Below, one piece after another: positions 11,051 to 26,960 of a stretch of DNA of 64,000 nt (its first letter is position 1; each line of letters opens with the position of its first letter). The notes beneath the pieces are model-generated. The model did not search any database and was not told where the DNA came from. It saw only the letters and a list, made by a program, of their open reading frames with translations. Origin of the DNA: a virus (taxonomy: Duplodnaviria; Caudoviricetes). The position numbers and the translations under genes were made by a program. The DNA lies in the IMG/VR virus record IMGVR_UViG_3300021387_000661, positions 224,001 to 288,000 of that record. One strand, written 5' to 3'.

Positions 11051-11382
11051 TTATGGAAATTATTAAAGACTTGAATCCAGAAACCAGGAAATACAAATTC
11101 ATTCACTGGGGGTGTTGTGAGTTTACAGCCCTTGAAAATGAATTCAAATGGACTGCTGGACAATATAATGAGACAACTGCAAGTGTAGTTTGTCCAAAGT
11201 GTGGGAAACAGTTTTATCAAGATCCAGAAGAGATTAAACCAGAAACACCATCATTTGATGATTGGCCAAAGGTAACAAACTGTCCAAAGAATTGTAAGAT
11301 ATGTCAAGCCAAATGTTTATACAGGAAGGAGAAGTATAATGATTATGTGTCTCCAAAAGATTAATTTTTTTGTTATATTTAA

Positions 11383-11427
11383 TTTACATAAATACTTTAG
11401 AAAGTCAAAAATCAATTTACATAAATA
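11383..11427 (+). promoter_or_regulatory. Tandem TTTACATAAATA boxes (T4-late-promoter-like) ahead of leader 1
   Basis: Two copies here and two at 18651-18687; resembles TATAAATA. Confidence 0.6.
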
Positions 11428-11431
11428 TAGT

Positions 11432-11503
11432 ATGATGACATTAAATAACATATCAAATAGGAAATCCGATTTAAGAAAATTGGATTCTTTTGGTGTGGTA
11501 TAA
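11432..11503 (+). CDS. Leader peptide 1 (MMTLNNISNRKSDLRKLDSFGVV)
   Basis: 23-codon uORF forming a long hairpin; its 3' end is complementary to the downstream terminator arm. Confidence 0.75.
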   Translation: MMTLNNISNRKSDLRKLDSFGVV

Positions 11504-11531
11504 TGTCAATAAGATAACAAGCATATCATCT

Positions 11532-11567
11532 AAAACCACACCTTTGAAAAAAGATGTGGTTTTTTTT
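11532..11567 (+). terminator. Attenuator terminator 1
   Basis: AAAACCACACCTT / AAGATGTGGTTTT stem followed by T-run. Confidence 0.8.
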
Positions 11568-11576
11568 GATAAAATA

Positions 11577-11608
11577 TTTGGAAGTTTAAAAAAAAGTTGT
11601 TATATTTG
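11577..11608 (+). promoter_or_regulatory. Bacteroidota primary-sigma promoter (-33 TTTG, -7 TATATTTG); further copies near 15010, 17255, 19374, 24785, 47308, 50490, 57182, 59480, 62021
   Basis: Matches the Bacteroides TTTG / TAnnTTTG consensus at about 20-nt spacing, always intergenic. Confidence 0.85.
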
Positions 11609-11757
11609 TAGTGTTGAAAGTTCATTAAAATAAAGCCAATCCGCCCAGTCGGAAAAGTAAGATTATGGAAACATCCATGTGGGATGGTTTACGAATCATC
11701 AACACCGTCGATTCGGGACTTCTGAAATAAAAAAGTGGTACTTGACTTAAATTGATT

Positions 11758-11830
11758 GCAACCTTGGCGCAGTGGCTAGCGCAACTGACTTTTAATCAGT
11801 GGGTCTCGGGTTCGAATCCCGAAGGTTGCA
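11758..11830 (+). tRNA. tRNA-Lys(TTT)
   Basis: Cloverleaf; ACTGA ctTTTaa TCAGT. Confidence 0.92.
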
Positions 11831-12027
11831 CACAAAACATAAATTTATTTTGATATTTGAAAAATTTATGTTATATTTGTAATACACGTACCCAGGTTGA
11901 GATAAATTTTGCAAGAATTTATAATATAATTACTGATTCCCTGGGTTTTAAAATCCACAATGGCAGATGCGCACAGTCCCGGAGTGGTTGAGTGAGGAGG
12001 ACTTGCAATAACCTCCAAACAAAAGGA

Positions 12028-12103
12028 AGTCTTGTAGTTTAATGGTAGAATGCCTGCCTCGAAAGCAGGAGATGGATGCAGGGTTCGAATCCCCCCAAGA
12101 CAA
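12028..12103 (+). tRNA. Atypical tRNA, anticodon CGA (Ser-like)
   Basis: CCTGC ctCGAaa GCAGG; GGTTCGAATCC; first pair mismatched, odd variable region. Confidence 0.6.
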
Positions 12104-12127
12104 CAAAGTTAGTTCATTGAAAATATT

Positions 12128-12293
12128 GCCCTGGTGGTGGAATGGTAGACACGAGGGACTTAATTAGCAGAGTAAACTGTCTTAAAAAATCTTGTTTGGA
12201 AAATATAGGAACTTTGACAGGTTCAAATCCTGTTTCCAGACCAATCCCTTGGCCTGCAAGGCCTTGCGGGTTCGACTCCCGCCCGGGGCACCA
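12128..12293 (+). tRNA. tRNA-Leu(TAA) interrupted by 79-nt insert (12164-12242)
   Basis: Leu-type D and variable arms; removing the insert gives AGGGA ctTAAaa TCCCT; encoded CCA. Confidence 0.85.
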
Positions 12294-12355
12294 ACATAGT
12301 TGATTCTGACTGTTGTCAGACTTGAGGTTAATGACAGGACCTTCAACTATTAAAT

Positions 12356-12434
12356 GCGGGTGTATCGCCACTGTCTTATACACAGTCATTAACAGCGTAA
12401 TTGGTGTATGGGGGTTCAAGTCCCTCCACCCGTA
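12356..12434 (+). tRNA. D-armless tRNA-Ile(TAT) with long variable region
   Basis: GCGGGTG/CACCCGT acceptor; ACTGT ctTATac ACAGT; normal T arm. Confidence 0.7.
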
Positions 12435-12629
12435 CAAGCTTATTTGAAACAGCACTGGTACAAGGATCCATACCAGTAAAGATGAGATGGTAGCGCTGAA
12501 GTCTACGAACCTTAACAGGAAGTATCCGGATTCAAACTCCTGTCCTGTGTTACGGAACCAGTCTGGGTCACCAGGGTTTAATTGGGATGGAAACACCCAA
12601 GGAAGAGAAACCACCTTATGCTGTTATAT

Positions 12630-12701
12630 GCTTCCATAGGTCAACGGATAGACTGACTCTCCCCTAAAGAGTAGATACATGTTCAATTCATGTTGGGAGT
12701 A
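12630..12701 (+). tRNA. tRNA-Arg(CCT)
   Basis: ACTCT ccCCTaa AGAGT (C33). Confidence 0.8.
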
Positions 12702-12713
12702 CAAAACATAAAT

Positions 12714-12787
12714 GGCCCCTTAGCTCAGCGGATCAGAGCAACAGCCTTCTAAGCTGTGGGTCCTGCGTTCGAATCGCAGAGGGGTCA
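12714..12787 (+). tRNA. tRNA-Arg(TCT)
   Basis: ACAGC ctTCTaa GCTGT. Confidence 0.92.
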
Positions 12788-12807
12788 CAAAAAAAGTTTA
12801 AAAGATA

Positions 12808-12834
12808 ATGAGACAGTATAAACATAAACAGTAG
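12808..12834 (+). CDS. Leader peptide 3 (MRQYKHKQ) upstream of two tRNA-Lys(TTT)
   Basis: A-rich initiation context, two AAA codons, followed by mutually exclusive helices. Confidence 0.6.
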   Translation: MRQYKHKQ

Positions 12835-12885
12835 TTGTGTTGGTATCATCCAGAAAGATGAGACCAACCAAGTCATATATGGAAA

Positions 12886-12960
12886 GGTCTCGTGGCGCAA
12901 CTGGATGAGCGCACCTGTCTTTTAAACAGGGTGTTATGGGTTCGAGTCCCATCGGGACCA
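12886..12960 (+). tRNA. tRNA-Lys(TTT)
   Basis: CCTGT ctTTTaa ACAGG. Confidence 0.9.
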
Positions 12961-12969
12961 CAAGGTATT

Positions 12970-13042
12970 GGCCTTGTAGCTTAGATGGTAGAGCACCACC
13001 CTTTTAAGGTGGGAGTCGTGGGTTCGAGCCCCACCGGGGTCA
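12970..13042 (+). tRNA. tRNA-Lys(TTT)
   Basis: CCACC ctTTTaa GGTGG. Confidence 0.9.
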
Positions 13043-13267
13043 CAAAGATTAAAGTTTGAAATATATGGGTGGCTTGCATGCAGTTCTTGATAAGTCAGAT
13101 ATAGTACTTACTGATACTGTCTTGAACCAGAGTAAAAAGACCGGTACCTGATTGCAATAAGTTCCCACCCACCCTTTACCTGACAGGTCGAGCGTGATAT
13201 GGTCGCCTGTATTCACCAGACGTGGAGAAGAGACATTGAAACTCTGTCAGGTTTTTAATAGATTATT

Positions 13268-13624
13268 ATGGAAAAGAAACCAAAGATAAAGTGGAAGAAT
13301 TTTAAAATCTGGATCAAAGACCAGTTCAAGAGGAAGACCTGGTTCAGAAACTTTTTCATCACTGGGAATGCCTGGGGAGGGTTCAGTATCAACTCTCACA
13401 TCAACCAACATACAGGTGAACCAAAGATAACATACAATCATCTTGAATCCGCCCAGAAGGCTGCTGACAAGATGGGACAGAAACACAACACACACTTCAG
13501 TGTTTACAAGTGTCTTTACTGTGATGGTTATCATATTGGAAAGAACAGGGAGAACAAGACAGATTATGACAAGAAGGTAGTTACAAATGTTGAAGTAAAA
13601 GACAAGACTTTAATACTTAAATAA
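13268..13624 (+). CDS. Hypothetical basic protein with YKCxxCxGYHIG zinc motif
   Basis: ORF translation. Confidence 0.7.
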   Translation: MEKKPKIKWKNFKIWIKDQFKRKTWFRNFFITGNAWGGFSINSHINQHTGEPKITYNHLESAQKAADKMGQKHNTHFSVYKCLYCDGYHIGKNRENKTDYDKKVVTNVEVKDKTLILK

Positions 13625-13625
13625 G

Positions 13626-14078
13626 ATGAACACACTTGAAAATACAATTCAGAAGGATCTGGTTCAGGCAATGAAGAACCATCAGGAACACACTGTTGCA
13701 GCATTGAGGTCTGTTAAGACTGCCATTATGGAAGTGAAGACCGCTGCCAATGGTAAGAAGGATTTGGAAGATGGTGACATTGTGAAGATCATCCAGAAGT
13801 TAGTTAAGCAAAGGAAGGAGAGTATGGACATCTATTCCCAGGCAGGTAGGCATGAACTTGCAGACAATGAGCAGCAGGAGATGTTTGTGTTGATGAACTA
13901 TCTTCCAAAGATGCTCACTGAATCAGAGGTGGAGGAAATTGTTGTGAAGACGATCGCAGACCTTGGTGCAACCTCAATGAAAGATATGGGAAAGGTGATG
14001 GGATTCATCAATAAGACTTATGCTGGACAGGTGGATGGTTCTATGGTATCAAGAATTGTTAAATCTAAATTAGGATAA
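13626..14078 (+). CDS. yqeY: GatB/YqeY domain protein
   Basis: AMK..LRSVK, KLVKQRKES..Y..AGR.ELA..E, YLPK, DMGKVMG. Confidence 0.9.
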   Translation: MNTLENTIQKDLVQAMKNHQEHTVAALRSVKTAIMEVKTAANGKKDLEDGDIVKIIQKLVKQRKESMDIYSQAGRHELADNEQQEMFVLMNYLPKMLTESEVEEIVVKTIADLGATSMKDMGKVMGFINKTYAGQVDGSMVSRIVKSKLG

Positions 14079-14491
14079 TATGGCAAAGTTTGTTGTTTAT
14101 GCTCATGACAAGACTGATGTAGAATCAAATCTCATCTATGTATGTACCTGTGACACCAAAAATATGGCAAAGAGTATTACAAGTGCTATGAGGTTCAGGG
14201 ATTCCGGTGGAAGGAATGATGGGTCGGGTTTATATGATTATTATGTTAGAAAAGAAGATTGGATAGTATGAAAACCTGGATTATAGTTTTAGCAATTGTA
14301 TTTGTTGTTTTAAAGTTAGTTCAGCGGTTTCTTGCAAACTATATCAGAAATGACAGATTGGAAAGTGTAAAATACTACTTTCTTGATGGTGCAACAACAC
14401 TTGGGGTGATACATGGACTTGTTTCTTTATTTTGTATATTGGTTGGTTGTACAGATTTGATTTTATTGTTTATTTATTTGTTGAATTTAGT

Positions 14492-14983
14492 ATGAAGAAT
14501 ATAGCATTGGTTGCCCATGATGGAAGAAAGAAAGAATTGATGGAGTGGGTAAGGTATAATTGGGAAACTCTTTCAAAGCATAATTTATATGCAACTGGTA
14601 CAACTGGAAAATTGATTAGTGGTATTGAAGTGGATCTTGGATTTGGTGGTGGAGAAGGAGTTTATAGGAGACAGATTGAGTATCCTTTGAGGAGTAAAGT
14701 AACATGTCTCAAATCTGGTCCACTTGGTGGAGATCAACAGATTGGAGCAATGATTGCAGAAGGAAAGATAGATGTATTGATATTTTTCTGTGACAATCTC
14801 ATTACACAAGGTCACCAGACAGATGTGTCTGCACTTACCAGACTTGCATCACTTTATAATATTGCATTTGCAACAAACAGGACAACTGCTGATATGATTC
14901 TTACATCACCATTGTTCAATGATGAAAATTATAAGATGATTGTTCCTGATGTGATTGAGAAATATAAAAACAGACAAATTTAA
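14492..14983 (+). CDS. mgsA: Methylglyoxal synthase
   Basis: IALVAHD, ATGTTG, SGPLGGDQQIG, H.TDV.AL.R, ATN.TAD. Confidence 0.95.
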   Translation: MKNIALVAHDGRKKELMEWVRYNWETLSKHNLYATGTTGKLISGIEVDLGFGGGEGVYRRQIEYPLRSKVTCLKSGPLGGDQQIGAMIAEGKIDVLIFFCDNLITQGHQTDVSALTRLASLYNIAFATNRTTADMILTSPLFNDENYKMIVPDVIEKYKNRQI

Positions 14984-15083
14984 TAAAAACATAAATATTT
15001 TTATCTGGGATTTGGAAAATAAAATATTTTTTGTTATATTTGTATTGTTATTCAGAAAGAGTTCTTTGAATTTAGAAATATAT

Positions 15084-15420
15084 AGGTCTTGTTGATGCTT
15101 TCAGGAAAGACTGTAGGACAAGGGTTCGAGTCCCTTCAGGTCCACAAATAAACACACTTAAGTCATCGGAGTACGCCTCTGTAATGATTGAGGAATTCAC
15201 TAAACGGTGTGGAAAATCAGGTTGAGTAGGCTTCGTATCTCAACCAACTTTGGGCCTGCCTGGTTTTGACTGCTTTTGAGTATGGAGAGTGGAGAGGTCT
15301 ATTGCCAATAACTGGCAAAAACAACGGTTTCTCTGTAAACTTTGGCCCTGTCGCACAGACAGCTACTCCAAAGGCTATGGTTGCTTTCGCTTAATTGCAG
15401 GCTTGAACATAGTAGATCTT
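15084..15420 (+). ncRNA. ssrA: Circularly permuted (two-piece) tmRNA; tag frame 15314-15394
   Basis: T-arm/acceptor 3' strand (GGAC..GGGTTCGAGTCCC..CAGGTCCA, ends 15144) precedes the 5' strand GGGCCTG..TTTTGAC (15252); G3.U70; resume context ATAACT-GGC; outer ends approximate. Confidence 0.85.
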
Positions 15421-15505
15421 TCACCAGGTGGATGATCCAGAGGGTTTCTCATTCCATCTTTCCAAATAAGATGGATACTTTGAAAGTTCTTTATAATAAA
15501 TATTT

Positions 15506-15681
15506 GGCCAGGTAGCTCAGCTGGTTTAGAGCAGCGGACTGTATAAGGAGTGGTTTACCGAAACAAACCAATCTGGTATAGTTTAATGGCAAAATGCCTC
15601 GGGTCGTAGATGATGGTGGTTCGATTCCACCTACCAGATCTAATCCGCGGGTCGTGGGTTCGAGTCCCTCCCTGGCCGCCA
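15506..15681 (+). tRNA. tRNA-Asn(GTT) interrupted by 98-nt insert (15543-15640) containing a tRNA-like fold
   Basis: Removing the insert gives GCGGA ctGTTaa TCCGC; G73; CCA. Confidence 0.85.
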
Positions 15682-15683
15682 AA

Positions 15684-15763
15684 GTACATAGGATGTAAGT
15701 GCACACATATGTTGGGTTCGGGTATGATTAACCCACAGAGGTTTGAGTCCTCTCTATGTACCA
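15684..15763 (+). ncRNA. tRNA-like RNA without a canonical anticodon loop
   Basis: GTACATAG/CTATGTAC stem, T-arm AGAGG tttgagt CCTCT. Confidence 0.5.
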
Positions 15764-15800
15764 AATATAAGTTCTTTGAAAAATAAAAACTTCATACAAT

Positions 15801-16071
15801 GGAGGAGTGGGAGAGTGGTTTATTCCAGCGGTCTTGTTAATTCGAGTGCTTCCAGAGGAATCTGGAAAGTAGAATTCCCCTAATTCGGTGGAACCTTAAC
15901 AGGTAATGCTGATGGTAATACCGAGCCAATGTTTAAAGACAGTGTGTAGAGACTTTACAGGGAACATCCAGAACGGATGAAGATAAAGTCCAGACCACAA
16001 TATGAAAGTAATGTGTGTAAGGAAAACCGCCGCTCCGAAAGGGGCCGTCGGTTCGAATCCGGCCTCCTCCG
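15801..16071 (+). tRNA. tRNA-Ser(TGA) with group I intron
   Basis: Spliced loop GCGGT ctTGAaa ACCGC; long variable arm; G73. Confidence 0.88.
15836..16021 (+). mobile_element. Group I intron (IC3-like, ORF-less, 186 nt)
   Basis: 5' exon ends in U, intron ends in G; P/Q/R/S-like AATTCGGTGGAAC, AATACCGAGC, GTAGAGACT, AAGATAAAGTCC. Confidence 0.88.
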
Positions 16072-16137
16072 CTAAATATACAAATTTCAAAAAAGTTTGT
16101 TATATTTATTAAGGTTTTGTTATGTGTTTGTTTGTTT

Positions 16138-16203
16138 AAAGATTCATACCGCAACAATTAAAAGCTCAAACTGATAATTTGATTACTTTCTTTTGAATCT
16201 TGT
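16138..16203 (+). repeat. AAAGAnnCATACCGCAACA...nnTCTTGT hairpin element (second copy 18481-18546)
   Basis: Two copies with compensatory closing stems (AAGATTC/GAATCTT; AAGAACC/GGTTCTT). Confidence 0.7.
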
Positions 16204-16259
16204 TTTCTTTAACAAACATAAATTTAACCAGGCTTTTATAAACAATTAATAATTAAAGT

Positions 16260-16886
16260 ATGAAGAAATTTTTAGTATTTCTTATGAGTATTATGCTCAT
16301 GATTGGTGTGAGTGCATGTACTTGCTCCCAGCAGAAGAAAACTTCTGAACTAAAGGCTGGTGAACTGGTTGTTGAGAATGTCATCTCCCTTGACCGTCAG
16401 GCAATGAACCTTGCACATGGTGGTAATTACAGGTGGTTTGAGACTGGTGTTCAGCTCAAGAACTTCCTTGATGAGGAAAATGATGGTACCATTGATTTGG
16501 TTGTCAATGTTTTCCAGGTAGTTGAGGAGTATGATTCTACAAGTTTTGATACCTTTGTTTACAAGTATCAGCACTTCTCTGATGGTTCATTTAATGAGGA
16601 AGGTGTTCATGGTTTCTGGGTTGAAGATTACCCTCTTGAGAATGAAGCAATCAAGGTAACCTTCAAGGAAGCTTTTGAAAAGGTCCAGGAAGTTAATCTC
16701 CCTAAACCTCACACCCGTCAGGTAGTATTGAGGAAGCAGGTTGGTCCTGTTGAGGCAAATCCTCAGTGGATTTTTGGTAACCTCCATTCACAGATTTATG
16801 TTGATGCTGTGACTGGTGCAGTTTCAAAGGACAATCCTGCATTCAATGGTCTCAATCTTGGTACACCTCTTGGTGAATGGCCTTAA
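16260..16886 (+). CDS. Putative lipoprotein
   Basis: Hydrophobic signal peptide with lipobox-like VSAC. Confidence 0.7.
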   Translation: MKKFLVFLMSIMLMIGVSACTCSQQKKTSELKAGELVVENVISLDRQAMNLAHGGNYRWFETGVQLKNFLDEENDGTIDLVVNVFQVVEEYDSTSFDTFVYKYQHFSDGSFNEEGVHGFWVEDYPLENEAIKVTFKEAFEKVQEVNLPKPHTRQVVLRKQVGPVEANPQWIFGNLHSQIYVDAVTGAVSKDNPAFNGLNLGTPLGEWP

Positions 16887-17097
16887 TAGAAATCGGTGAG
16901 GTAGTTAGTTTTGCACTCTCGTCATAAATAAAATGCAGACTTGGCAATCTGGAACAGACAGATATTACTATGATGTGACAAGGAAGTGGAATACTTGCGC
17001 CACGAGATAATATCAGATGGAGGAAAGAGGAAGGGTTCTTCGTAAAAGTTGCCCAATAGGGAATGGAGGTTCGAGTCCTCCCATCATAGCCAAACAT

Positions 17098-17172
17098 TGC
17101 GGGGTAGACTGGAGAGGTTCCAGCCCGGTCTCATAAGCCGGTCCACGTGGGTTCGAATCCCACCCACCGCTA
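17098..17172 (+). tRNA. tRNA-Met(CAT), initiator-like
   Basis: CCGGT ctCATaa GCCGG; 1:72 mismatch. Confidence 0.82.
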
Positions 17173-17321
17173 CTAAATGCCAGTATAAGACAGTATATAT
17201 GTAAGTTCAACTCTTACTATTGGCGCAAAAAAATACAAAATATTTTCATAAATATTTGGATATTTCAAATTTTTTTGTTATATTTGTATTGTTAAGTTCT
17301 TTGATAAATATTGTAAAAATA

Positions 17322-18395
17322 TAAGGGTGGGTTTCTCATCCTTCCTGTATCCTTCGGGAGAAAGGAGAAAGATAACCAGTGAATACATAAGCTGGGAAAG
17401 TCAGTGTGGCGCAATCTTGCCCCTGGCGGAGGAGTTTTCCTCTCTACAAGAAAACCAAGGCAGTCAGCATATCCTGGAATGGCAGGACACTGTGAAAGGG
17501 ATATGCGGGGGTTCTTACCAAGTCTCCTTGAGTGGTAACACTGACAAGTGCTGTTTTGCTTCCAGACAAGAAGATTACCAGTCTTATGGTTTGGATGACC
17601 AAAGTTTATTGATGTCCAAAAGGAATTACCAGATTCCTCTAACAGGTGGTGCTGAGATCAGAAATGGTTGGATGTTAGAATGAGTAGAATGAGTAACACA
17701 GCGGTGTGTGAAAATAGAAAGGCGATGTATCTAACCCTCTCAAAAGGAGGCAGGATAGCAAGGGCAACCTCGTCTTTCAAATGGTAGAGTGCTAAATGAT
17801 TCATTAAAGATTATGACCAAAATGATCAATAAAAAATTATTAAGCAAGCAAAAGTGTTGCCCACACTACAGGACAATATGGTTATGCTTCTGTGATATGA
17901 AGCCTTATGGAACTCGCAAGGTGAAGTAAGAGTATTGTAAGTAGGGACAATGCAAGAGGAGGCATCCTCTTAACTCGGCAGAGGTCTTTGGCTTGAACAC
18001 ATCTATATAATGTAGTGTAGTGACTGTGGTAGTCTTGGTGGAAACACCATAAATCCATCCATATCCTCCTTACCAGTAGCGATGCTGGTGTGTATAAACT
18101 CTGGGCGACCAGGGCTTGTCCTGAAAGGGAAGAGAACAGGAGGCGATTAGGGTCAACACTCAGCCCCAATCAAACAAAAATTTATTCAGTGTCAGTAACC
18201 AGTCTGGTATGGAAGAGCGAGACTTCCCCGAATAACAAAAGTCATTTCATAAAGGTACAGAACCTCTGCGAAATAGAACCACAAGGAGGGTTTTCCAAGG
18301 CCAGGGACTTGACTTGAAACATACTTTCTTGGGTTCTAAAGGAAGTTGAAGAGTGAGTTTGCATTCAGTCTATGAGTGGTTTTATCTCTTCATCC
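17322..18395 (+). ncRNA. Large structured ncRNA (about 1.07 kb), possibly GOLLD-like
   Basis: No credible ORF, raised GC, many short hairpins, own promoter plus boxA, abuts tRNA-Asp; family assigned from size and context only. Confidence 0.5.
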
Positions 18396-18397
18396 AT

Positions 18398-18472
18398 AGT
18401 GCGTTAGTTCAGCCTGGTTAGAATGCCACACTGTCACTGTGGAGGTCACGGGTCCGAATCCCGTACGCACTG
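18398..18472 (+). tRNA. tRNA-Asp(GTC)
   Basis: CCACA ctGTCac TGTGG. Confidence 0.92.
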
Positions 18473-18706
18473 CAAATGGTAAAGAACCATACCGCAACAT
18501 TTGAATGAAATACATTTTTGGGTTATGTAGCAATTTTGGTTCTTGTTTTTCCTTGTTTAGCAAAACAAGGTGGTGGAGTTGGGTGGAAACACTGTCCTCT
18601 GTGAGTGGTAATCTCACATAAATAACTTACCATTTATTTTGAAATTTTAATTTACATAAATATATTAGAAAGTAATTTACATAAATACTTTAAAAGAATA
18701 AAAATT

Positions 18707-18829
18707 ATGATGACATTGCATACACATATGGTATTTGCTGCTATTGCAGGTAAGCCAGGTTGCTACCGTTTTTGGGAACAACTCGGACAGAAGGGTGTGT
18801 GTATGTCATCTGAAAATGAAAAACAATAA
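18707..18829 (+). CDS. Leader peptide 2 (MMTLHTHMVFAAIAGKPGCYRFWEQLGQKGVCMSSENEKQ)
   Basis: 40-codon uORF; same ATG ATG ACA TT start and tandem upstream boxes as leader 1; alternative helices with the terminator. Confidence 0.75.
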   Translation: MMTLHTHMVFAAIAGKPGCYRFWEQLGQKGVCMSSENEKQ

Positions 18830-18883
18830 GTGGAGACCATTATAGGAGAAAGGTTAAAACTTAAACAAATATAGAAGAACGAC

Positions 18884-18923
18884 ATCTCACACAAATCACA
18901 AAAAGGTTTATGTGAGATTTTTT
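18884..18923 (+). terminator. Attenuator terminator 2
   Basis: ATCTCACA...TGTGAGAT stem plus T-run, 10 nt before tRNA-Pro. Confidence 0.78.
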
Positions 18924-18932
18924 AATTTATAT

Positions 18933-19008
18933 TGGGTAGTGCGGTAGTTGGTCACCGGCTGCATTTGGGATGCAGACATTCACGCAGGTTCGAGTCCTGT
19001 CTACCCAA
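18933..19008 (+). tRNA. tRNA-Pro(TGG)
   Basis: CTGCA ttTGGga TGCAG. Confidence 0.88.
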
Positions 19009-19018
19009 CAAAGTGAAT

Positions 19019-19093
19019 GGGCTGGGTAGTGTAATCTGGAAGCACATCACTCTGGCAGAGTGAAGGATGGGGTTCAAATCCCCCCTGTGTCCA
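19019..19093 (+). tRNA. tRNA-Ala(GGC), non-canonical acceptor stem
   Basis: TCACT ctGGCag AGTGA; G3.U70. Confidence 0.7.
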
Positions 19094-19115
19094 CAAAGAT
19101 AATAAAACAAAGTTT

Positions 19116-19358
19116 ATGGAGACACTCAAACAGATTGTAAAAGGTAGTGCAAAATTGGACTGCATCAAGAGTGGTGGTGTTGCTGAATACATCATTACAT
19201 CAGAAAGCAACAACAAATATATGTTGGAAATAGATTTATCTGATAAAGTTGATTGTGGAGAGAGTGCATCATTTATGCCTTTTTATGAGAAAGCTATAAT
19301 TCTTATGCGATGGATTCGTCGTGCGATGGATAAAGGTGAATTAATTGAACTTTGTTAA
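19116..19358 (+). CDS. Hypothetical protein
   Basis: 80-aa ORF with AT-rich leader. Confidence 0.7.
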   Translation: METLKQIVKGSAKLDCIKSGGVAEYIITSESNNKYMLEIDLSDKVDCGESASFMPFYEKAIILMRWIRRAMDKGELIELC

Positions 19359-19420
19359 AAAAATACTAAAAGATTTGGAAGTTTCAAATATTTTTGTTAT
19401 CTTTGCAGTAGAAAATAAAT

Positions 19421-19495
19421 GCTGGGATATCTGCTAGTGGTCCAGGCGATGTGCCTTTCAAGCATGTGACACGGGTTCGAATCCCGTTCCCAGTA
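19421..19495 (+). tRNA. tRNA-Glu(TTC), atypical
   Basis: TGTGC ctTTCaa GCATG. Confidence 0.72.
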
Positions 19496-19654
19496 CAAAG
19501 GAGTGAAGGGAAAATCCAACCAACACTTCACATAGAGCGAAACAGAACCTGATAATGATTCCTGCTGAAGGATAAGGCAAGGTGAAGATAGGGGTTCAAT
19601 GAGGTTGAAATGATGCATGCTCAAAGTAAACAATATATAATGCTCGACAATTAT

Positions 19655-19732
19655 GGAGCTGTCGTATAGGTGGTTATTGTACAATGGACTGAAAATCCAT
19701 AGGCAGTGGTTCAACTCCACTCGGCTCCACCA
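19655..19732 (+). tRNA. tRNA-Phe(GAA)
   Basis: ATGGA ctGAAaa TCCAT; CCA. Confidence 0.85.
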
Positions 19733-19940
19733 AGGTTTGGTGTAAGGTGACTTGCATTGATGAGAGTAAATGAAGATAGGATGAATGATCAACATCCAAA
19801 AAGAAATGAAATCATCTAAAGTCAAACCAATGAAATCATTACAGATACTAGTCAATGTAGTGAGGAAATTGCAGAGGCATTTAGCACACCTGTCTATGTC
19901 ACAGGTGATTCATAAGCAAGTAAAGTGAGACCTTGACCTC

Positions 19941-20022
19941 CGGGATGTGCTGGAACTGGTAGACAGACCAGACTAAGGATCTGGTGCTGCAAGGCGTGAG
20001 GGTTCGAGTCCCTCCATCCCGA
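19941..20022 (+). tRNA. tRNA-Leu(AAG)
   Basis: CCAGA ctAAGga TCTGG; Leu-type body. Confidence 0.85.
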
Positions 20023-20182
20023 CTTGATGTAAAAAGACGTTAAACCTTGTGGGAGTTAGTCTTCTCCCTTGTGGGATAATGGTGCCGGCATCATAGTAGA
20101 TTGCCAAGGAAACTGCCCGAGTCAGCGGGGTCTGAACAGTGGGGTTCGATACCCTGGGCACCATCAAAAAAGTTCTTTGATT

Positions 20183-20255
20183 GTCTCTGTAGCTCAATTG
20201 GTAGAGCACCTGACTCTTAATCAGGGGGTTCCGAGTTCGAGCCTCGGCAGGGACA
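20183..20255 (+). tRNA. tRNA-Lys(CTT)
   Basis: CCTGA ctCTTaa TCAGG. Confidence 0.92.
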
Positions 20256-20430
20256 CAAAACAAATGCCGGTTTATCACAGTATATTGGTGACTGTGGCTG
20301 CCCTGTACAGGTGGGTTTGACTTCAAGTGAAAGTATACAGCTCGAGACAATGTATATGAGTAAAGGTCAGATATGGGTTTGGTTCGATTCCCCCGATGGC
20401 ACAAAGTTCTTTGAATTGTTATATTTAAAT

Positions 20431-20507
20431 GGGCCGGGTAGTGTAAAGGTTTAGCACGTCACACTTGCACTGTGACAGAGGGGTTCGAATCCCACCTGTG
20501 TCCACCA
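20431..20507 (+). tRNA. tRNA-Ala(TGC), non-canonical acceptor stem
   Basis: TCACA ctTGCac TGTGA; G3.U70; CCA. Confidence 0.72.
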
Positions 20508-20608
20508 CTTATTACCATATTATCTTTCAGAGAAATGGTTGACTAAAACTCGCAGACTCATCCGGTAATTGGTTGTAAAAGTGCAGTTAAAGGTTAGATG
20601 AGTATTTT

Positions 20609-20682
20609 GGGCTTGCATGTACCAAGGTTGGCGGAACTCCCTTGCAAGGAGATCGTGGAGGGTTCGATTCCCTTCGGGTCCA
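20609..20682 (+). tRNA. tRNA-Ala(TGC), atypical D region
   Basis: CTCC ctTGCaa GGAG; G3.U70. Confidence 0.7.
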
Positions 20683-21118
20683 CAAAACAGGTGAAGTTGT
20701 CATACATATAAGCCTGTTTCACAAGTTCAGAAGGTGATGCATACACACTGACTTGTCGGCATATGAGAGTGTCGGAGACACACAGAAGTGGAAACCACAT
20801 TCAGGATTGAATTGAAGTGCAAATAGATTCTTTCTGTTAGGATGAAGGTCTGCCGGACACAAAGCTCGCCAGGAAGATTACCCTGGAAATACTTGGTTCG
20901 ACTCCAAGATATGCTACAAAATCACAGAGTGCCCAGAGCATTGAAGCATTGAAGGTATGATGCTTTTGAACAAGTTTGAACCCTGTAATCGAAAGAGGGC
21001 AATGCAGCAAGCAATACTTTGTGAGATAACAACTTTTCTATGGTATCATATAGAGGTTAGTATGGCGGTCATTCAGTGCTGCAACAGAGGTTCGATTCCT
21101 CTTACCATAGCAACATTT

Positions 21119-21210
21119 GGGTAGGTAACGGCGCTGGACTGTAAATCCAGTCTGAACACAAATTGTCGTATTGGCCTTGCAGTAAGGGGGTTCGAGTCCC
21201 TCCCTACCCA
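21119..21210 (+). tRNA. D-armless tRNA-Tyr(GTA) with long variable region
   Basis: GGGTAGG/CCTACCC; CTGGA ctGTAaa TCCAG. Confidence 0.7.
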
Positions 21211-21217
21211 CACAAAT

Positions 21218-21291
21218 GCGGAGTTAGTTCAACGGTAGAATGTCAGCCTTCCAAGCTGAATATGAGGGTTCGATTCCCTTACTCCGCTCCA
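21218..21291 (+). tRNA. tRNA-Gly(TCC)
   Basis: TCAGC ctTCCaa GCTGA; U73; CCA. Confidence 0.92.
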
Positions 21292-21376
21292 AACTGTGGG
21301 TGTAGTGTAATATTATAGATTCAGCACACAGGGGATACCCTGGAATGATGGTATGAAATCCATCCACTCATAACAT

Positions 21377-21451
21377 ACCGATGTAGCTCAGTTGGTGGAG
21401 AGCGACAGATTCATATCCTGTAGGTCATTGGTTCGAACCCAATCATCGGTA
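21377..21451 (+). tRNA. tRNA with CAT anticodon (Met or Ile2)
   Basis: ACAG a-ttCATat-c CTGT. Confidence 0.8.
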
Positions 21452-21464
21452 CATATAATTAAAA

Positions 21465-21635
21465 ATGATATTATGGATAACTGTGGGGCTAAAAGAGTAT
21501 CTGTTTAATGAGTGGAAATATAATGTACACAAAAGATACTTGAAATACTTTGATGAATGGTATGACAATCTTCTGGATTCCCAGAAAGAATTTTACAAGA
21601 GTTGGATGGAAGGGTATATGAGTCCATATCATTAG
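21465..21635 (+). CDS. Small hypothetical protein (56 aa, below ORF-track cut-off)
   Basis: MILWITVGLKEYLFNEWKYN...SPYH fills the gap between tRNAs. Confidence 0.55.
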   Translation: MILWITVGLKEYLFNEWKYNVHKRYLKYFDEWYDNLLDSQKEFYKSWMEGYMSPYH

Positions 21636-21664
21636 GTCTTTGAAATGTTGATTATGAATTATAT

Positions 21665-21755
21665 AGGTCGGTGGCCGAGTGGTTGAAGGCGGCGGTCTCC
21701 AAAACCGTTAGGATATTTTGAAAAATCCTCGAGGGTTCGAATCCTTCCCGGCCTG
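21665..21755 (+). tRNA. tRNA with CCA anticodon (Trp) and long variable arm
   Basis: GCGGT ctCCAaa ACCGT; AGGAT..ATCCT variable hairpin; G73. Confidence 0.8.
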
Positions 21756-21763
21756 CTTAAGAT

Positions 21764-21835
21764 TGAGGTATGGTGTAATGGCCAGCACCTTGGATTTTGG
21801 TTCCAATAGTCCAGGTTCGAATCCTGGTACCTCAA
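21764..21835 (+). tRNA. tRNA-Gln(TTG)
   Basis: TTGGA ttTTGgt TCCAA. Confidence 0.9.
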
Positions 21836-21843
21836 CAAAAAAT

Positions 21844-21917
21844 GTCGGGTTGGCCGAGCGGTCAGGTCCTGGTCTGCAAAACCAGTTAGATTGGTTCGAC
21901 TCCAATACCCGACTCCA
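21844..21917 (+). tRNA. tRNA-Cys(GCA)
   Basis: CTGGT ctGCAaa ACCAG; U73; CCA. Confidence 0.92.
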
Positions 21918-21920
21918 TTT

Positions 21921-21992
21921 GCCCCTGTAGTGTAATGGATCGCACACAGCACTACGGATGCTTTAGAGAGGGTTCGAGTCCTTCCAGGGGTA
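21921..21992 (+). tRNA. tRNA-Arg(ACG)
   Basis: AGCA ctACGga TGCT. Confidence 0.88.
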
Positions 21993-22113
21993 CAAAATTA
22001 TAAATATAATAGATGGTCTTTGACGAAAGAATCGTATCGCAGTTGAGCTTTGTCCTCACTGACAGAAACGTAAGTCTGGGGTGTACTACAAGCCTGTGAT
22101 TGTAGTATTTTTT

Positions 22114-22185
22114 GCGGCATTCGTATAATGGTTATTATACCAGCTTGCCATGCTGGGGACGGGAGTTCGATTCTCCCATGCCGCT
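22114..22185 (+). tRNA. tRNA-Gly(GCC)
   Basis: CCAGC ttGCCat GCTGG. Confidence 0.9.
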
Positions 22186-22193
22186 CTCAATAT

Positions 22194-22270
22194 GGTGACT
22201 GTGGCCGAGTGGTTTAGGCGCAACACTGTGGATGTTGTTTACGTCAGTTCGAGTCTGACCAGTCACCCCA
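22194..22270 (+). tRNA. tRNA-His(GTG) with encoded G-1
   Basis: CAACA ctGTGga TGTTG; G-1:C73; CCA. Confidence 0.92.
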
Positions 22271-22280
22271 AAAATAAAGT

Positions 22281-22988
22281 TATGGAAAAGGTAGTAAGAT
22301 TTTTTAAACAAGATAATAAGTGGTATGCAGATATTCCAAACCACACTCTTGAAGAGAATGAGATGGTAATGGGTGCAGATATTGCTCTTGAGTATCTTGC
22401 AGAAGAGAGGAAAGAGTTACACATCACATTCACAGATGAGAATCCAGGATGGAATGTTCCTCTGGCACTCACTCTGAAAGATCATGATGATGAGGGTGGA
22501 TACTATGATGTATCAGGAATTCTCTTTATGGATTTTATGCTCACTTATGGTAAAGAGTTCATTGGAGTCAAACCACAGGTTTGGATTTGTAATGTTACAC
22601 ATGATGTATTTGGTGAACATCCAGAACACATTTACATCACAAAGATTGAATCAAAACATTAGTTATGGACAAAGATTTTAAGAAGAGGTTCTTAATGAAC
22701 CGTGATGAGACAGGTAGGTTCATTGTCAAGTCAATGAAGACTGGTAAATCCTATTATGTTGAAGCAATTGATGGTGACGAAAGGACTATCTGGGGAGATG
22801 TGGATCCAGTAACAAAAAAGTTGACAGGTAGTTATGGTGACAAGTACAAGGGAAGTATCAGACCTGAACAGTCACTTATTACCAATGAGAATGGGTTTGA
22901 CAAGATTCATACTCTTGGTCCTGGGGAATCACCATTGGATTATATTAACAGGATTGATGATGAGTACTTTGAAAAGATGAGTAAATAG
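22281..22988 (+). CDS. Two hypothetical proteins (22281-22662, 22665-22988)
   Basis: First ORF most likely starts at MEKVVRFF, after tRNA-His. Confidence 0.65.
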
Positions 22989-22996
22989 TTTTTTGG

Positions 22997-23078
22997 GGGA
23001 GAGTCGCATAGTGGCAATTGCAAGGGACTGTAAATCCCTCGCCTTCGGGCTTCAGAGGTTCGAGTCCTCTCTCTCCCA
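22997..23078 (+). tRNA. tRNA-Tyr(GTA)
   Basis: AGGGA ctGTAaa TCCCT; long variable arm. Confidence 0.92.
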
Positions 23079-23193
23079 CAGCCTATCAACCAAGTTGTTG
23101 AAAAGGGTAACGGATGCGCAGCGATTGCGGATCTTGCAAGTTTTTCGCCAGGGTTTCCTTGGTCTCTTTGAGATGAATAAATCTTGGATTTAT

Positions 23194-23275
23194 GGGGGTG
23201 TGGTGGAATGTAGACACCCCAGACTTAGGATCTGGTGCCAGTAATGGCGTGAGGGTTCGAGTCCCTCCATCCCCA
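23194..23275 (+). tRNA. tRNA-Leu(TAG)
   Basis: CCAGA ctTAGga TCTGG. Confidence 0.9.
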
Positions 23276-23410
23276 CACTGACACTACTCTATGAGTAGAT
23301 GTCTTGGTTGGTCACAATACTGTAATTGTGATAGTCCTCTGGGACTTAAAAGAGTTGCAGTGATGCAATCTGTCAAGGTCAGTCTGGAACCAGTTAATCC
23401 AGACATTTAT

Positions 23411-23493
23411 GCAGCAGTGGTGGAATGGTAGACACGCTACTTTGAGGGGGTAGTCTGGGCAACTGGGTGTGAGTTCGAGTCTCACCTGCCGCA
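23411..23493 (+). tRNA. tRNA-Leu(GAG)
   Basis: CTACT ttGAGgg GGTAG. Confidence 0.88.
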
Positions 23494-23501
23494 CAAAACA
23501 T

Positions 23502-23574
23502 AGCGGTATAGCGCAATTGATAGAGCATCAGATTCTGGCTCTGAAGGTTGGGAGTTTGAACCTCTCTACCGCTA
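23502..23574 (+). tRNA. tRNA-Gln(CTG)
   Basis: TCAGA ttCTGgc TCTGA. Confidence 0.8.
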
Positions 23575-23676
23575 CAAACAAAAAAGGGTGGGTCAACCAG
23601 GTAAAGGCAGGGTAAGTCTCTGGTTCTTCTCTGATGATGGCGCAAGTAGTCAGAGTTTCTTAAATTACCCATATAT

Positions 23677-23751
23677 GGGTGTGTAACTCAGTTGGTACAG
23701 AGTACCTGTCTGATACACAGGAAGTCGATGGTTCAAGTCCATCCACACCCA
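23677..23751 (+). tRNA. tRNA-Ile(GAT)
   Basis: CCTGT ctGATac ACAGG. Confidence 0.88.
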
Positions 23752-23760
23752 CACAAATAT

Positions 23761-23835
23761 GGTCCTGTCGTCTAGTCTGGCCAAGGACATCACCCTCTCA
23801 AGGTGGAGACCCGGGTTCAAATCCCAGTGGGACTA
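23761..23835 (+). tRNA. tRNA-Glu(CTC)
   Basis: TCACC ctCTCaa GGTGG. Confidence 0.88.
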
Positions 23836-24400
23836 CAAAAAATATTTCAAATTTATTTTGAAATTAAAAATATTTTTGTTATATTTGTATTACAAAAAAG
23901 TTCATTGACATATAATAAGTGATGACTACATAGACATAATCAATGCCACAATGTTGAGCTCTTGAGAATATGGCAGATAAAAGTCTTTAGACAAACTCAA
24001 CTATGGTCATCACTAAATTATAAGAACAGCAAGATGGGGTACTGATAATCTTCACACAAGGAGTTCTAGATTGAGGGTGTGTGAAGGAAAGGTATAAATA
24101 TTGTTAAAGAGGAATACCTGACCCCTGTCCAATTGTGGCAAGTGGAGAAATATGGATTGTCTATCTGGGGTTCTCCTGTCCTCTGACAACAGTGACTACG
24201 GAAGTCTGTTGTGTTCTTTTATTATATTGAGAATCCAAGGTGGGTGCTTTTATAGAATACTCTCTTAAAATGGATAGAGAGGAAAGAAGTGTAATATAGG
24301 TGAAGTTTCTTAGTTGTTACACATCCTGGTGATGGGGAATGTCATCACGGTGAGACTTCAAGAAGGTGACTACGGAAATCCTTTTGTTCTCAATTTCTAT

Positions 24401-24483
24401 GCCCGAGTGGGGGAATGGTAGACCCAGCAGACTCAAAATCTGCCGTCTGCAAAGACGTGCGAGTTCGACTCTCGCCTCGGGCA
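24401..24483 (+). tRNA. tRNA-Leu(CAA)
   Basis: GCAGA ctCAAaa TCTGC. Confidence 0.92.
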
Positions 24484-24849
24484 CAACAGTCCATCCAGTA
24501 TTGAGGATAAGGTAAACTTGAAAGTACAGGAAAATTCACCTTGTTCAGCGGTTGCCGATACGCAATATATAAGGACCACACAAGTAGTACATTGCAGTTG
24601 AAACATTACCCGACATAGAGACTACATAAGAAATGTGCTTTATTGGATTTGAGACTGTAAAAGAAGGGTGAAGTACAAACCCTGTTCAGTTATGATGGAA
24701 TAACCAAAGTCCAATGGCAGGGAGGGATATAATGGTGTGAAGTTGCTATTCACCATATTTAAAATTAAAAAAAGATAAAACAAATTTGGATAATTCAAAA
24801 AAAGTTGTTATCTTTGTATTGAAAGTTCATTGATATTTGTTGTTTTATA

Positions 24850-25445
24850 TTTGGAAAGTTTCTGACCTGGATTAAACCCTCATTATTGGTAGGGGAATTA
24901 AGGGACTAAACCCAACCACAAGATAATGTCCTGATGTGACAGAAGTCCTGTAGTTTTTATCTCTGTGGGTAGGTTGGCTTTGTATAATAATACCACAGCA
25001 GAAATAAGTTTCTGGTCTTAAACAATCCATACGTTTTATGATGGGGTTCGTAAACCTAACCATTCGCATCTTTTGGAAAGATGTGTTACCGTGCCGTGAA
25101 ATTCGGAGGAGTCAATTCCACAGACCAACAGAAAGAATGTACACATTGCTTACAGTTGGTCAGTGCTGTGCCCACCCAGCGAGGTTGTTATGCAGTTTAT
25201 CAACAGGGTGTGGGAAAAGTGTATGAGAGAAGACTGAATGTTCCTGGACAATGGTGTTGGAATCTGGGATAAAACAAAGAGTAGGTTGGATCAAGAAGAG
25301 AACTGGTAGGAGTTACTGTGACTTTCTGATGTTTGTCCATCAGAAAACCAGGGAAGATAATGGACACCAATATGGCAAGAGATTTTTGATAGGGATTCAC
25401 AAATCAGTGAGGTGGCCATGCACCTATGACAACACTGATTTACTT
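24850..25445 (+). ncRNA. Large structured ncRNA (about 600 nt), possibly ROOL-like
   Basis: No credible ORF; many hairpins; own promoter and boxA; abuts tRNA-Glu; family assigned from size and context only. Confidence 0.45.
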
Positions 25446-25447
25446 AT

Positions 25448-25519
25448 GGCGGGTTCGTCTATCGGTGAGGACACCAGATTTTCATTCTGGGAAGAGGAGT
25501 TCGATTCTCCTACCCGCTA
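25448..25519 (+). tRNA. tRNA-Glu(TTC)
   Basis: CCAGA ttTTCat TCTGG. Confidence 0.9.
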
Positions 25520-25639
25520 CAAATAAAAGTTGAAATGGAAGAAGAGTAACATTCCATATCCACTTAATGATTGAGTTTGTAAGAAAGTACTTTGAGACTG
25601 ATGCTTCCTACTGTACAGATTTCAACTTTTTTAGAAAAT

Positions 25640-25743
25640 TGCGGGGGAGTGAAACGGATAGGAACTCCTGAAAGGGTTGTTCAAAAATCATATCAGGCCC
25701 ATAACCTGATGATACTGGCTTCGACTGCCAGACCCGCTACCAA
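25640..25743 (+). tRNA. tRNA-Met(CAT)-like with a hairpin inserted in the D loop
   Basis: TCAGG ccCATaa CCTGA; T arm CTGGC/GCCAG; CCA. Confidence 0.62.
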
Positions 25744-25769
25744 GTATTAATTTAAAAATAGGTTTAACA

Positions 25770-25910
25770 ATGGCAGTTATTAAGACAGGTTCAACCTCAA
25801 GGAGAGAGGTGAAACACAAGAAGCGCCCTGGTATTGTCTCCAAGTGTAAGACTTCAAGGAACAAGAATTCCAAGCACTATGTGAAACCTTACAGAGGTCA
25901 GGGCCGATAA
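25770..25910 (+). CDS. Small basic protein ending KPYRGQGR (46 aa)
   Basis: MAVIKTGSTSRREVKHKKRPGIVSKCKTSRNKNSKHYVKPYRGQGR; AT-rich leader. Confidence 0.7.
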   Translation: MAVIKTGSTSRREVKHKKRPGIVSKCKTSRNKNSKHYVKPYRGQGR

Positions 25911-26052
25911 AAATACAGGTTAGAAGGCGATGGTTATTCCATAATGGTTGTGTACAGACCGGTGGAGACCTTCTGTGAAAGTCAGACGTGAAAGTAAACG
26001 AAATGAGTTCTCAGGGCAGCTGTGCCGAAGGATTATAGAAAACAGCACTTAT

Positions 26053-26128
26053 CGGGGTGTAGCTCAGTTGGTAGAGCGGGTGGTTTGGGACCATCAGGTC
26101 GCACGTTCGAGTCGTGTCACCCCGACCA
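26053..26128 (+). tRNA. tRNA-Pro(TGG)
   Basis: GGTGG ttTGGga CCATC; CCA. Confidence 0.9.
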
Positions 26129-26325
26129 AAATATGGCCTGGTGGGCAAATGGTAAAGTCACCCCTGAATGATGGGGGAGGTGTGTAATAAGGGTTACCTG
26201 ACAGTGCGGAGTAACAGTGTCGCGAACTGCCAAAGGTTGGGTACAAGAATAAGCACAGGTCTGGAGGTATTCGCGATGCCAAAGGATGAATGCGGGTTCA
26301 ACTCCCGTTCGGGGCCACAAATTTT

Positions 26326-26400
26326 GGGAGGTTAGCTCAGTTGGGTCAGAGCATCTGGTTTACACCCAGAGGGTCATAGGTTCGAATCCTATATCTCCCA
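26326..26400 (+). tRNA. tRNA-Val(TAC)
   Basis: TCTGG ttTACac CCAGA. Confidence 0.92.
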
Positions 26401-26750
26401 CAAACAACTTTGAGTATGACAGTATATGATACATGTTAAAGGCTGGAGGAAAGAAGTTGTCAGAACCTATAGTGGTGAAGCAAAGGTGAGATTCCTTTGT
26501 GGAGAGTGGTCAAAACAATACCAGACGGTAGAGATGGGGAGTTCGAGTCTCCTTAGGTTCGCAAAGAGTGCAGTGTCAATCTCCCGTTGGGGCTGGGGTG
26601 AGACCTCTTAAAATAGAGTGAAAAAATGAATTAGCTCCACCAATACAGTTATTACTAATCTGTGAAAGTAATCGTCTTGAGTTGACGGTGATGGTTGAGT
26701 TTGAGGAAACGTTCCAGGTTCGAGTCCTGCAACCATAACAAAAAATACTT

Positions 26751-26905
26751 GCCGAGGTAGCTTTAATGGTAGAGCACCTGACTTCTACAGATTTATCCAC
26801 TGTGACGGATATTGGGTAATATGGGAGAAGAAGTCAACTTTTACGTCCGAAGCGTAAGTTATCCACGTAATCAGGGGGTTGCAGGTTCGACTCCTGTCCT
26901 CGGCT
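26751..26905 (+). tRNA. tRNA-Thr(TGT; CGT possible) interrupted by 82-nt insert (26785-26866)
   Basis: Removing the insert gives CCTGA ctTGTaa TCAGG; Thr-type GCC..GGC acceptor. Confidence 0.82.
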
Positions 26906-26960
26906 CAAACAAAGATTTTAGCCTGTTAGTTAAAATCTATATAAAATAACAATCAAATTT

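Follow-up and report, generated by a model that had tools for sequence, protein, structure and literature searches.

Leader-peptide attenuation is a textbook mode of control for amino-acid operons. The leader of the ilvGMEDA operon carries Ile, Leu and Val codons, and that of the thr operon carries Thr and Ile codons. By analogy, these multivalent leaders of enterobacterial amino-acid operons appear to be the closest described systems to the locus that we report here. How phage tRNA arrays are regulated is, to our knowledge, largely unknown, and full-text literature searches returned no published account of attenuator control of tRNA genes or of phage tRNA arrays. We describe here a cassette in a large gut phage that is probably a codon-matched, ribosome-dependent transcription attenuator of the trp/ilv style gating the main tRNA block of the phage. 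The evidence is computational only and the regulation has not been shown by experiment.

The phage record comprises 344,746 bp (345 kb) with 35% G+C, and the window, the whole stretch of 64,000 nucleotides that was analysed, corresponds to its bases 224001-288000; all positions below are those of the window. Its tRNA genes, about 40 in number and in several cases interrupted by introns, lie together with a tmRNA at 11.7-31 kb, and every one of them is on the plus strand. The first block (block 1, 11758-18473, plus strand) lies 3' of a paralogous cassette and encodes tRNAs Lys-UUU, Asn, Arg-AGR, Ile-AUA, Leu-UUA, Asp and Ser; the identities Leu-UAA, Asn-GUU and Ile-UAU depend on intron placement or on odd-structure calls. 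The gated block (block 2, 18933-27905, plus strand) runs from tRNA-Pro(UGG) to tRNA-Thr(UGU) and holds about 29 tRNA genes with 24 distinct anticodons and small ORFs between them. This anticodon count takes in two intron-bearing Thr-UGU genes, an Ala-UGC-like gene and a Tyr-GUA gene missed by ARAGORN. Anticodon-loop insertions of 79-186 nt are seen in the tRNA genes at 12128-12293, 15506-15681, 15801-16072, 26751-26906 and 27753-27905, and the ARAGORN isotype call of such intron-bearing genes varies with intron placement. Judged by loop and variable arm, and with only a partial alignment to intron-less genes of the related IMG/VR phage G001, intron-bearing tRNA genes look like Leu-UAA and Asn-GUU. 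The stretch between tRNA-Asp and the cassette (18474-18625) is conserved and structured and is kept in G001 and several metagenome homologs. It includes a hairpin TGTGAG-tggtaat-CTCACA (18600-18619), and CTCACA/TGTGAG also occurs in the cassette terminator. The phage host is likely a member of the Bacteroidota, because a neighbouring gene encodes a DUF3575 domain, which we take to be typical of Bacteroidota, because the best matches of the tRNA-Pro gene are in crAss-like and Cellulophaga phages, and because promoter-like TTTG...TAnnTTTG motifs recur that we assume, from what is established for Bacteroides promoters, to be of host type.

Ahead of block 2, the cassette at 18649-18924 is a real and conserved element. 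All its parts lie on the plus strand in the order two promoter boxes, an A-rich stretch, an ORF, a purine-rich spacer of about 50 nt, a terminator hairpin, six T and tRNA-Pro. The boxes are putative phage-type elements recognized by motif recurrence and homolog conservation: box 1 (AATTTACATAAATA) lies at 18649-18662, and a tandem copy, box 2, at 18674-18687 is found in most, not all, homologs. At least one box is present in all 11 cassettes of the promoter-region alignment. There are exactly five copies of the 14-nt box form in the window, and exactly ten of the 12-nt core TTTACATAAATA in the genome, or about 50 when one mismatch is allowed. Many core copies lie directly 3' of a hairpin and T run and shortly 5' of a start codon, and from this position we infer that the boxes act as a phage promoter element. 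A single box (TTTACATAAATA) is also located at 27612-27654, 23 nt 5' of tRNA-Ala(UGC), without a leader ORF and without a terminator; it would give an unregulated internal transcription entry into the end of block 2.

The leader ORF (18707-18829) starts with ATGATG and consists of 40 codons plus TAA, of which codons 3-29 form the proposed sensing part. Three segments that may pair alternatively surround it. Segment 1 (18709-18725), the 5' strand of helix 1:2 in the minimum-free-energy fold, contains the start codons; segment 2 (18795-18812), defined by folding and covariation, pairs with segment 1 or segment 3; and segment 3 (18876-18893), defined by pairing conservation, is the 3' strand of antiterminator 2:3 and overlaps the 5' arm of the terminator. 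The predicted intrinsic terminator (18884-18924) is composed of helix 3:4 (18884-18897 with 18905-18918; hairpin dG -12.8) and the T run at 18919-18924. It ends 8 nt 5' of tRNA-Pro (18933); a first-pass annotation of this DNA had rightly placed a terminator just before tRNA-Pro and was wrong only in giving the distance as 10 nt. A consensus scan found no promoter-like site between the ORF and tRNA-Pro, in agreement with the earlier statement that none separates the terminator from tRNA-Pro. The arrangement expected of an attenuator, an intrinsic terminator between leader ORF and regulated genes with no promoter between them, is thus met.

What sets this leader apart is its codon content. The 40 codons were initially described as covering 19 of the 20 amino acids with only Asp absent, and the ORF at 18707-18829 confirms this. 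Asp is also missing from block 2, as had been claimed, with tRNA-Asp located upstream at 18398 and outside the block. Ser, Asn and AAA are indeed confined to the distal tail, where they first occur at codons 34, 37 and 39. Their tRNAs belong to block 1, and a ribosome stalling this far along the ORF, within segment 2 or 3' of it, would not promote antitermination. The proposal that codons 1-30 can be read by block 2 was correct and too cautious, because cognate or wobble reading extends over codons 1-33. Within the sensing part, whose boundaries were picked after the sequence was seen, 27 of 27 codons are readable by block-2 tRNAs and 22 of the 24 block anticodons are addressed, with only Glu-CUC and Leu-UAG left out. 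Windows of 27 codons taken from the phage's own genes (29,130 in total) address 11-12 of these 24 anticodons at the mode and 20 at most. No window of the phage's own genes falls wholly into the strict block-2 codon set (0 of 86,701 with 28 codons, 0 of 85,690 with 31 codons). Base composition was considered as the cause of the match and is rejected, because among 26,276 open-frame mononucleotide shuffles of the leader, which preserve composition, none lies wholly in the strict set. A 2x2 Fisher test of leader by block, taking both cassettes together, gives p = 7e-6. Regulatory codons in or before segments 1 and 2 that relate to the regulated product are a hallmark of attenuators, and the leader has them. 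With one codon per tRNA and no codon runs, the stall signal should be weaker than in hisL or trpL.

Homologs of the cassette are few. A set of 5.8 billion proteins contains 14 clusters of peptide relatives of 34-41 aa, and a profile search of 1.84 billion representatives gave about six small 50%-identity clusters, all of 34-40 aa, and no larger or wider protein relatives. No Pfam family describes the leader peptide. Such a narrow family fits a local regulatory element. Thirteen distinct cassettes are available with their DNA, from the window, the IMG/VR phages G001 and G002, and metagenome contigs. Near and distant searches of the GenBank phage collection matched only the tRNA-Pro part, in the crAss-like and Cellulophaga phages already mentioned. 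A metagenome scan for a box followed by ATGATGA produced mostly chance matches, the real cassettes among the matches listed being L096, L114 and L134. In all 13 aligned homologs tRNA-Pro follows directly 3' of the cassette. Two further cassettes are more divergent, L159 lying ahead of tRNA-Ala(GGC) and L160 ahead of a tRNA with an Ala- or Cys-like anticodon loop (judged by eye, untyped), which argues that the cassette goes with the array and not specifically with tRNA-Pro. In G002, the gene that follows the cassette (L139, 1722-1790) has the loop TTTGAGA instead of TTTGGGA and is not called by ARAGORN; it may be a decayed or re-assigned tRNA-Pro. Two relatives that were found via the neighbouring 80-aa protein (L006 and L007) have no cassette upstream of the 80-aa gene. 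They share another motif (CACATAGGTTTCTAACCACAA; L006 2680-2700, L007 2885-2905) followed by a terminator-like hairpin, which may be a different leader element.

The homologs provide indirect evidence that the leader ORF is translated. It is open in all 13 (37-41 codons), and the distance from the ATG to the anchor CGTTTTTGG is 54, 60, 63 or 66 nt and hence divisible by three in every case. The anchor interval after CGTTTTTGG is 26 or 32 nt. The spacer 3' of the stop codon, in contrast, ranges from 54 to 64 nt and takes all three residue classes modulo three. Variable sites number 16, 18 and 26 at codon positions 1, 2 and 3, with a pooled pN/pS of 0.42. We conclude from the open frame, from length changes that occur only in frame, unlike in the spacer, and from the pN/pS value that the ORF is translated, as an attenuator demands; ribosome data are not available.

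Homolog leaders address 18-22 of the 24 block-2 anticodons. TTG, CAG, GAA and ATY change position and yet persist: TTG is found at codon 4 or 13/14 and occurs at least once in 12 of 13 leaders, CAG is found at codon 4, 23, 28/29 or 30, and two leaders in which codon 24 became GAG have GAA elsewhere. The central KPGCYRFWEQLG stretch behaves differently, with a conserved residue order that is more than a pure inventory would need. Conservation at the protein level rather than of the codon inventory had been named at the outset as an outcome that would refute the attenuator. The result is mixed, since the order in KPGCYRFWEQLG is kept, while the inventory survives positional turnover and the homologs of the paralogous leader reorder their residues. 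We consider that the codon-sensing reading stands nevertheless, because the codons of KPGCYRFWEQLG are mostly single-copy in the leader, the inventory survives turnover, and the paralogous leaders keep their codon set through reordering. In some homologs the sensing part does contain codons of the block-1 type (AAC at codon 3 in three leaders; AGC, GAT and AAA once each), and P0016 and P0017 have Ser there. Judging by these leaders, Asn, Asp, Ser and AAA are not strictly kept out of the sensing part.

The RNA of the cassette folds far better than shuffled versions (z = -4.2), with the long helix 1:2 and the terminator hairpin both formed. Helix 1:2, which had been predicted from the sequence before, is recovered as 18709-18725 with 18795-18810 in the minimum-free-energy fold. 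Duplex energies of -22.6 (1:2), -14.6 (2:3) and -14.7 kcal/mol (3:4) follow the classical attenuator order. The suggested antiterminator (18795-18807 with 18881-18892) also keeps its coordinates: once segment 1 is masked, 18796-18811 of the nascent transcript pairs with 18876-18893 and thereby uses up the 5' arm of the terminator. Antiterminator 2:3 would thus be mutually exclusive with both helix 1:2 and the terminator, as an attenuator requires. Equilibrium folding alone was rejected as the source of the antiterminator, because the full-length RNA still folds the terminator when segment 1 is masked. Since the terminator wins at equilibrium even then, antitermination must be kinetic. The stop codon is located 16 nt 3' of segment 2, so a terminating ribosome would leave segment 2 uncovered and termination would rely on helix 1:2 re-forming.

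Pairing is well kept among the 13 homologs. The terminator helix is paired in 100% of cells and nearly invariant including its loop, with one U-G to U-A change that is consistent with the helix. Helix 1:2 is 83% paired as a whole, and its inner 8 bp are almost invariant. Antiterminator 2:3 is paired in 93.9% of cells and has three pairs with double, compensatory changes, a count reached in 7 of 500 shuffles. In L139, GACAU, AUGUC and GACAU of segments 1, 2 and 3 have become GACGC, ACGUC and GACGU, a change at the same position in all strands, and in L009 AUGUC/GACAU has become AUGCC/GGCAU. Coordinated changes in segments 1, 2 and 3 are what one would predict for a segment 2 that pairs with segments 1 and 3 in turn.

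A second, paralogous cassette ('attenuator 1'; 11381-11571, plus strand) precedes block 1. It has two boxes, a 23-codon leader (11432-11503), alternative helices and a terminator (11532-11571). Over 96 nt its 5' part shows 74% identity to cassette 2, and both cassettes have the boxes and the initial 11 nt of the ORF in common. The duplex energies (1:2 -16.2, 2:3 -15.0, 3:4 -10.6 kcal/mol) point to the same helix logic. The sensing codons are another set, AAT, AAC, ATA, TCA, AGG, AAA, GAT, TTA and AGA, which mirrors the tRNAs of block 1: 13 of 15 are readable by block-1 tRNAs, and 8 of the 9 block-1 anticodons are addressed (P = 0.0018 in gene windows). In its homologs L146, L147 and L134 the residues are reordered and AGG, AGA, ATA, TTA, AAA, AAY, GAY and TCN are kept. 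Within this family, a change of the stop codon from UAA to UGA covaries with UUA to UCA in segment 3. Both cassettes and the same two-block split of the tRNA genes are kept in G001 and G002. Unlike cassette 2, the paralog has, just 3' of its terminator, a promoter motif of host type (Bacteroidota-like), TTTG-N20-TATATTTG (11576-11610), a motif of about 50 nt that recurs at many sites in G001 and G002. Thus, block 1 has a second entry and attenuation is not the sole route to its transcription.

The same design recurs in an unrelated phage. G005 is a complete 357-kb phage that has only a 47%-identical small protein in common with the phage studied here. It gives 65 tRNA matches, most in arrays sorted by amino acid, and four of its arrays are each headed by a small ORF with a strong terminator, which lies 10-30 nt 5' of the first tRNA. 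A leader MRNLVHIQPQHQPPQVERGYYV, including HIQPQHQPPQ, precedes a Pro/His/Gln array, MKKMLDILVVLSVAVLLWDDAAEEKLHEVG an Asp/Glu/Val/Leu/Ala/Trp array and ...TYYYTKKSYKK... a Lys/Tyr array, and a fourth leader rich in Thr, Ser, Asn, Gly, Ile, Cys and Phe precedes a matching array. These leaders address 6 of 6, 12 of 13, 3 of 3 and 11 of 11 anticodons of their own arrays. In each of them a 3' piece of the ORF is complementary to the 5' arm of the terminator; for arrays D and E the best duplex does not clearly stand out from those obtained with a shuffled segment 3 (27 of 300 and 13 of 300). The G005 leaders share no motif, and yet each mirrors its own array. With unrelated sequences and another partition of the tRNA genes, they indicate that the design recurs. 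G005 also encodes a tRNA with anticodon CUA, an amber suppressor (L155, 16907-16981), which hints at TAG recoding in this phage.

Could the locus be something else? The small ORF might be a micropeptide gene that forms its own transcription unit, with a promoter and a leaky terminator from which the tRNA genes receive constitutive read-through, the codon match being a by-product of the peptide's composition and the helices acting on mRNA stability or on how the peptide itself is translated. The conserved residue order and mostly synonymous change in KPGCYRFWEQLG, two conserved Cys together with a hydrophobic N-terminal half, and start codons buried in helix 1:2 would all suit such a gene. However, the peptide belongs to a tiny family without wider protein relatives and is never seen apart from the terminator and tRNA array, and compensatory changes back specifically the helix that competes with the terminator. 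A composition by-product would moreover leave unexplained why the paralog mirrors the other block and why four unrelated G005 leaders mirror their own arrays, and we regard a micropeptide gene as unlikely. Even less credit can be given to a translation-independent riboregulator, in which a protein, small molecule or tRNA bound to the loop between segments 1 and 2 chooses between helices 1:2 and 2:3 and the ORF is incidental. The very high central DNA identity, including many third codon positions, and the significantly stable fold speak for it, but the ORF changes length strictly in multiples of three, unlike the spacer, its start and frame are kept in 13 homologs, and there is no meaningful Rfam match, T-box included. 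At gathering score Rfam reports only tRNAs in the whole window, and for the cassette at E <= 10 it gives only weak matches to a snoRNA family and an RNA-thermometer family (E = 3.2 and 10). A T-box riboswitch, which should show a stem I, specifier loop and T-box, was rejected in the absence of a T-box Rfam model match and in view of the coding-constrained ORF. Least convincing is a nascent-peptide arrest attenuator of the TnaC/SecM type, in which a CYRFWEQLG motif would stall the ribosome on a ligand or factor instead of tRNA supply: F22, W23, E24, Q25 and G27 are invariant and aromatic and Gly-rich motifs are typical of arrest peptides, yet this leaves the codon-to-anticodon inventory and its preservation through positional turnover unexplained and sits badly with reordered residues in the attenuator-1 homologs and with G005 leaders that lack a common motif and each mirror their own array.

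We therefore return to the codon-matched attenuator. Transcription would start at one or two of the phage-type promoter boxes, and the 40-codon leader would be translated while the RNA is still being made. When ribosomes move fast over codons 3-29, segment 2 would be covered or back-paired with segment 1, the 3:4 terminator would form, and transcription would end before reaching tRNA-Pro. A ribosome stalled in the sensing part would mask segment 1 or prevent it from closing around the ribosome; segment 2 would then be free to pair with the emerging segment 3, block the terminator and let the polymerase enter the tRNA block. With about one codon per tRNA species in the sensing part, the switch would report the shortage of any of them and provide feedback on the phage's own tRNA supply. 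A ribosome-mediated attenuator that lists the codons of its own block is what the first-pass annotation had proposed, and every part open to computation (ORF, terminator, antiterminator, codon match, paralog and G005) has held up. Comparison of sequences shows the ORF to be translated and bears out the terminator, the alternative helices and the match between codons and tRNAs. The promoter role of the boxes, the coupling of transcription and translation and the actual read-through response to stalling are inferred; no expression, 3'-end or ribosome data are available.

A further step, which we offer only tentatively, is that the one-of-each-codon leader serves as a surveillance switch for the whole tRNA pool, and its paralog likewise for the set of A-rich codons. 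If any single host tRNA were depleted or cleaved during infection, for example by an anticodon-nuclease defence or a phage-induced shut-off, the leader ribosome would stall and the phage's entire replacement set of tRNAs would be turned on. If this were true, both cassettes together would make up a phage-encoded sensor of decoding capacity derived from a classical attenuator. Should the attenuator itself be real, giant phages would gauge how fast each codon is decoded and tune their own supply of tRNAs. It could then supply the regulatory side of the argument about whether phages carry tRNAs for codon compensation or to replace host tRNAs that have been depleted, and it would be a compact natural part with a single transcriptional output that reflects how available about 22 different tRNAs are. 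The case offers comparative depth, with 13 homologs bearing coding and covariation signatures, a paralog pair that divides the codon table and an extreme "pangram" leader.

How does the cassette compare with described systems? Like the T-box, it is a terminator/antiterminator switch that reports tRNA status ahead of translation-related genes. The T-box, however, binds uncharged tRNA directly and without translation, whereas the phage ORF is coding-constrained and the element has no Rfam match. The pheM leader of E. coli pheST is likewise a leader-peptide attenuator acting on a component of the translation apparatus and not on biosynthesis, but pheST encodes a synthetase, and its leader uses Phe codons only, with no tRNA genes and no codon inventory. 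Closer are the ilvGMEDA and thr leaders. They share with the predicted phage switch a short translated leader, mutually exclusive helices 1:2, 2:3 and 3:4 and an intrinsic terminator at the end, and in both one ribosome reads several regulatory codons, so that shortage of any of the charged tRNAs leads to read-through. In contrast to these operons, which encode biosynthetic enzymes, the phage cassette would regulate tRNA genes, and instead of codon runs for two or three amino acids its leader probes about 22 tRNA species, each through roughly one codon. It is also found in a phage of a probable Bacteroidota host, with the stop codon beyond segment 2. With trpL and hisL it has the mechanism and the hierarchy of helix stabilities in common, and as in these systems leader translation must be co-transcriptional, because helix 1:2 hides the start region. 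Different from trpL, the terminating ribosome would not cover segment 2. While trpL and hisL sense a single amino acid by tandem codons, the output of the phage cassette is tRNA itself, and hence the loop would sense decoding capacity and not amino-acid supply.
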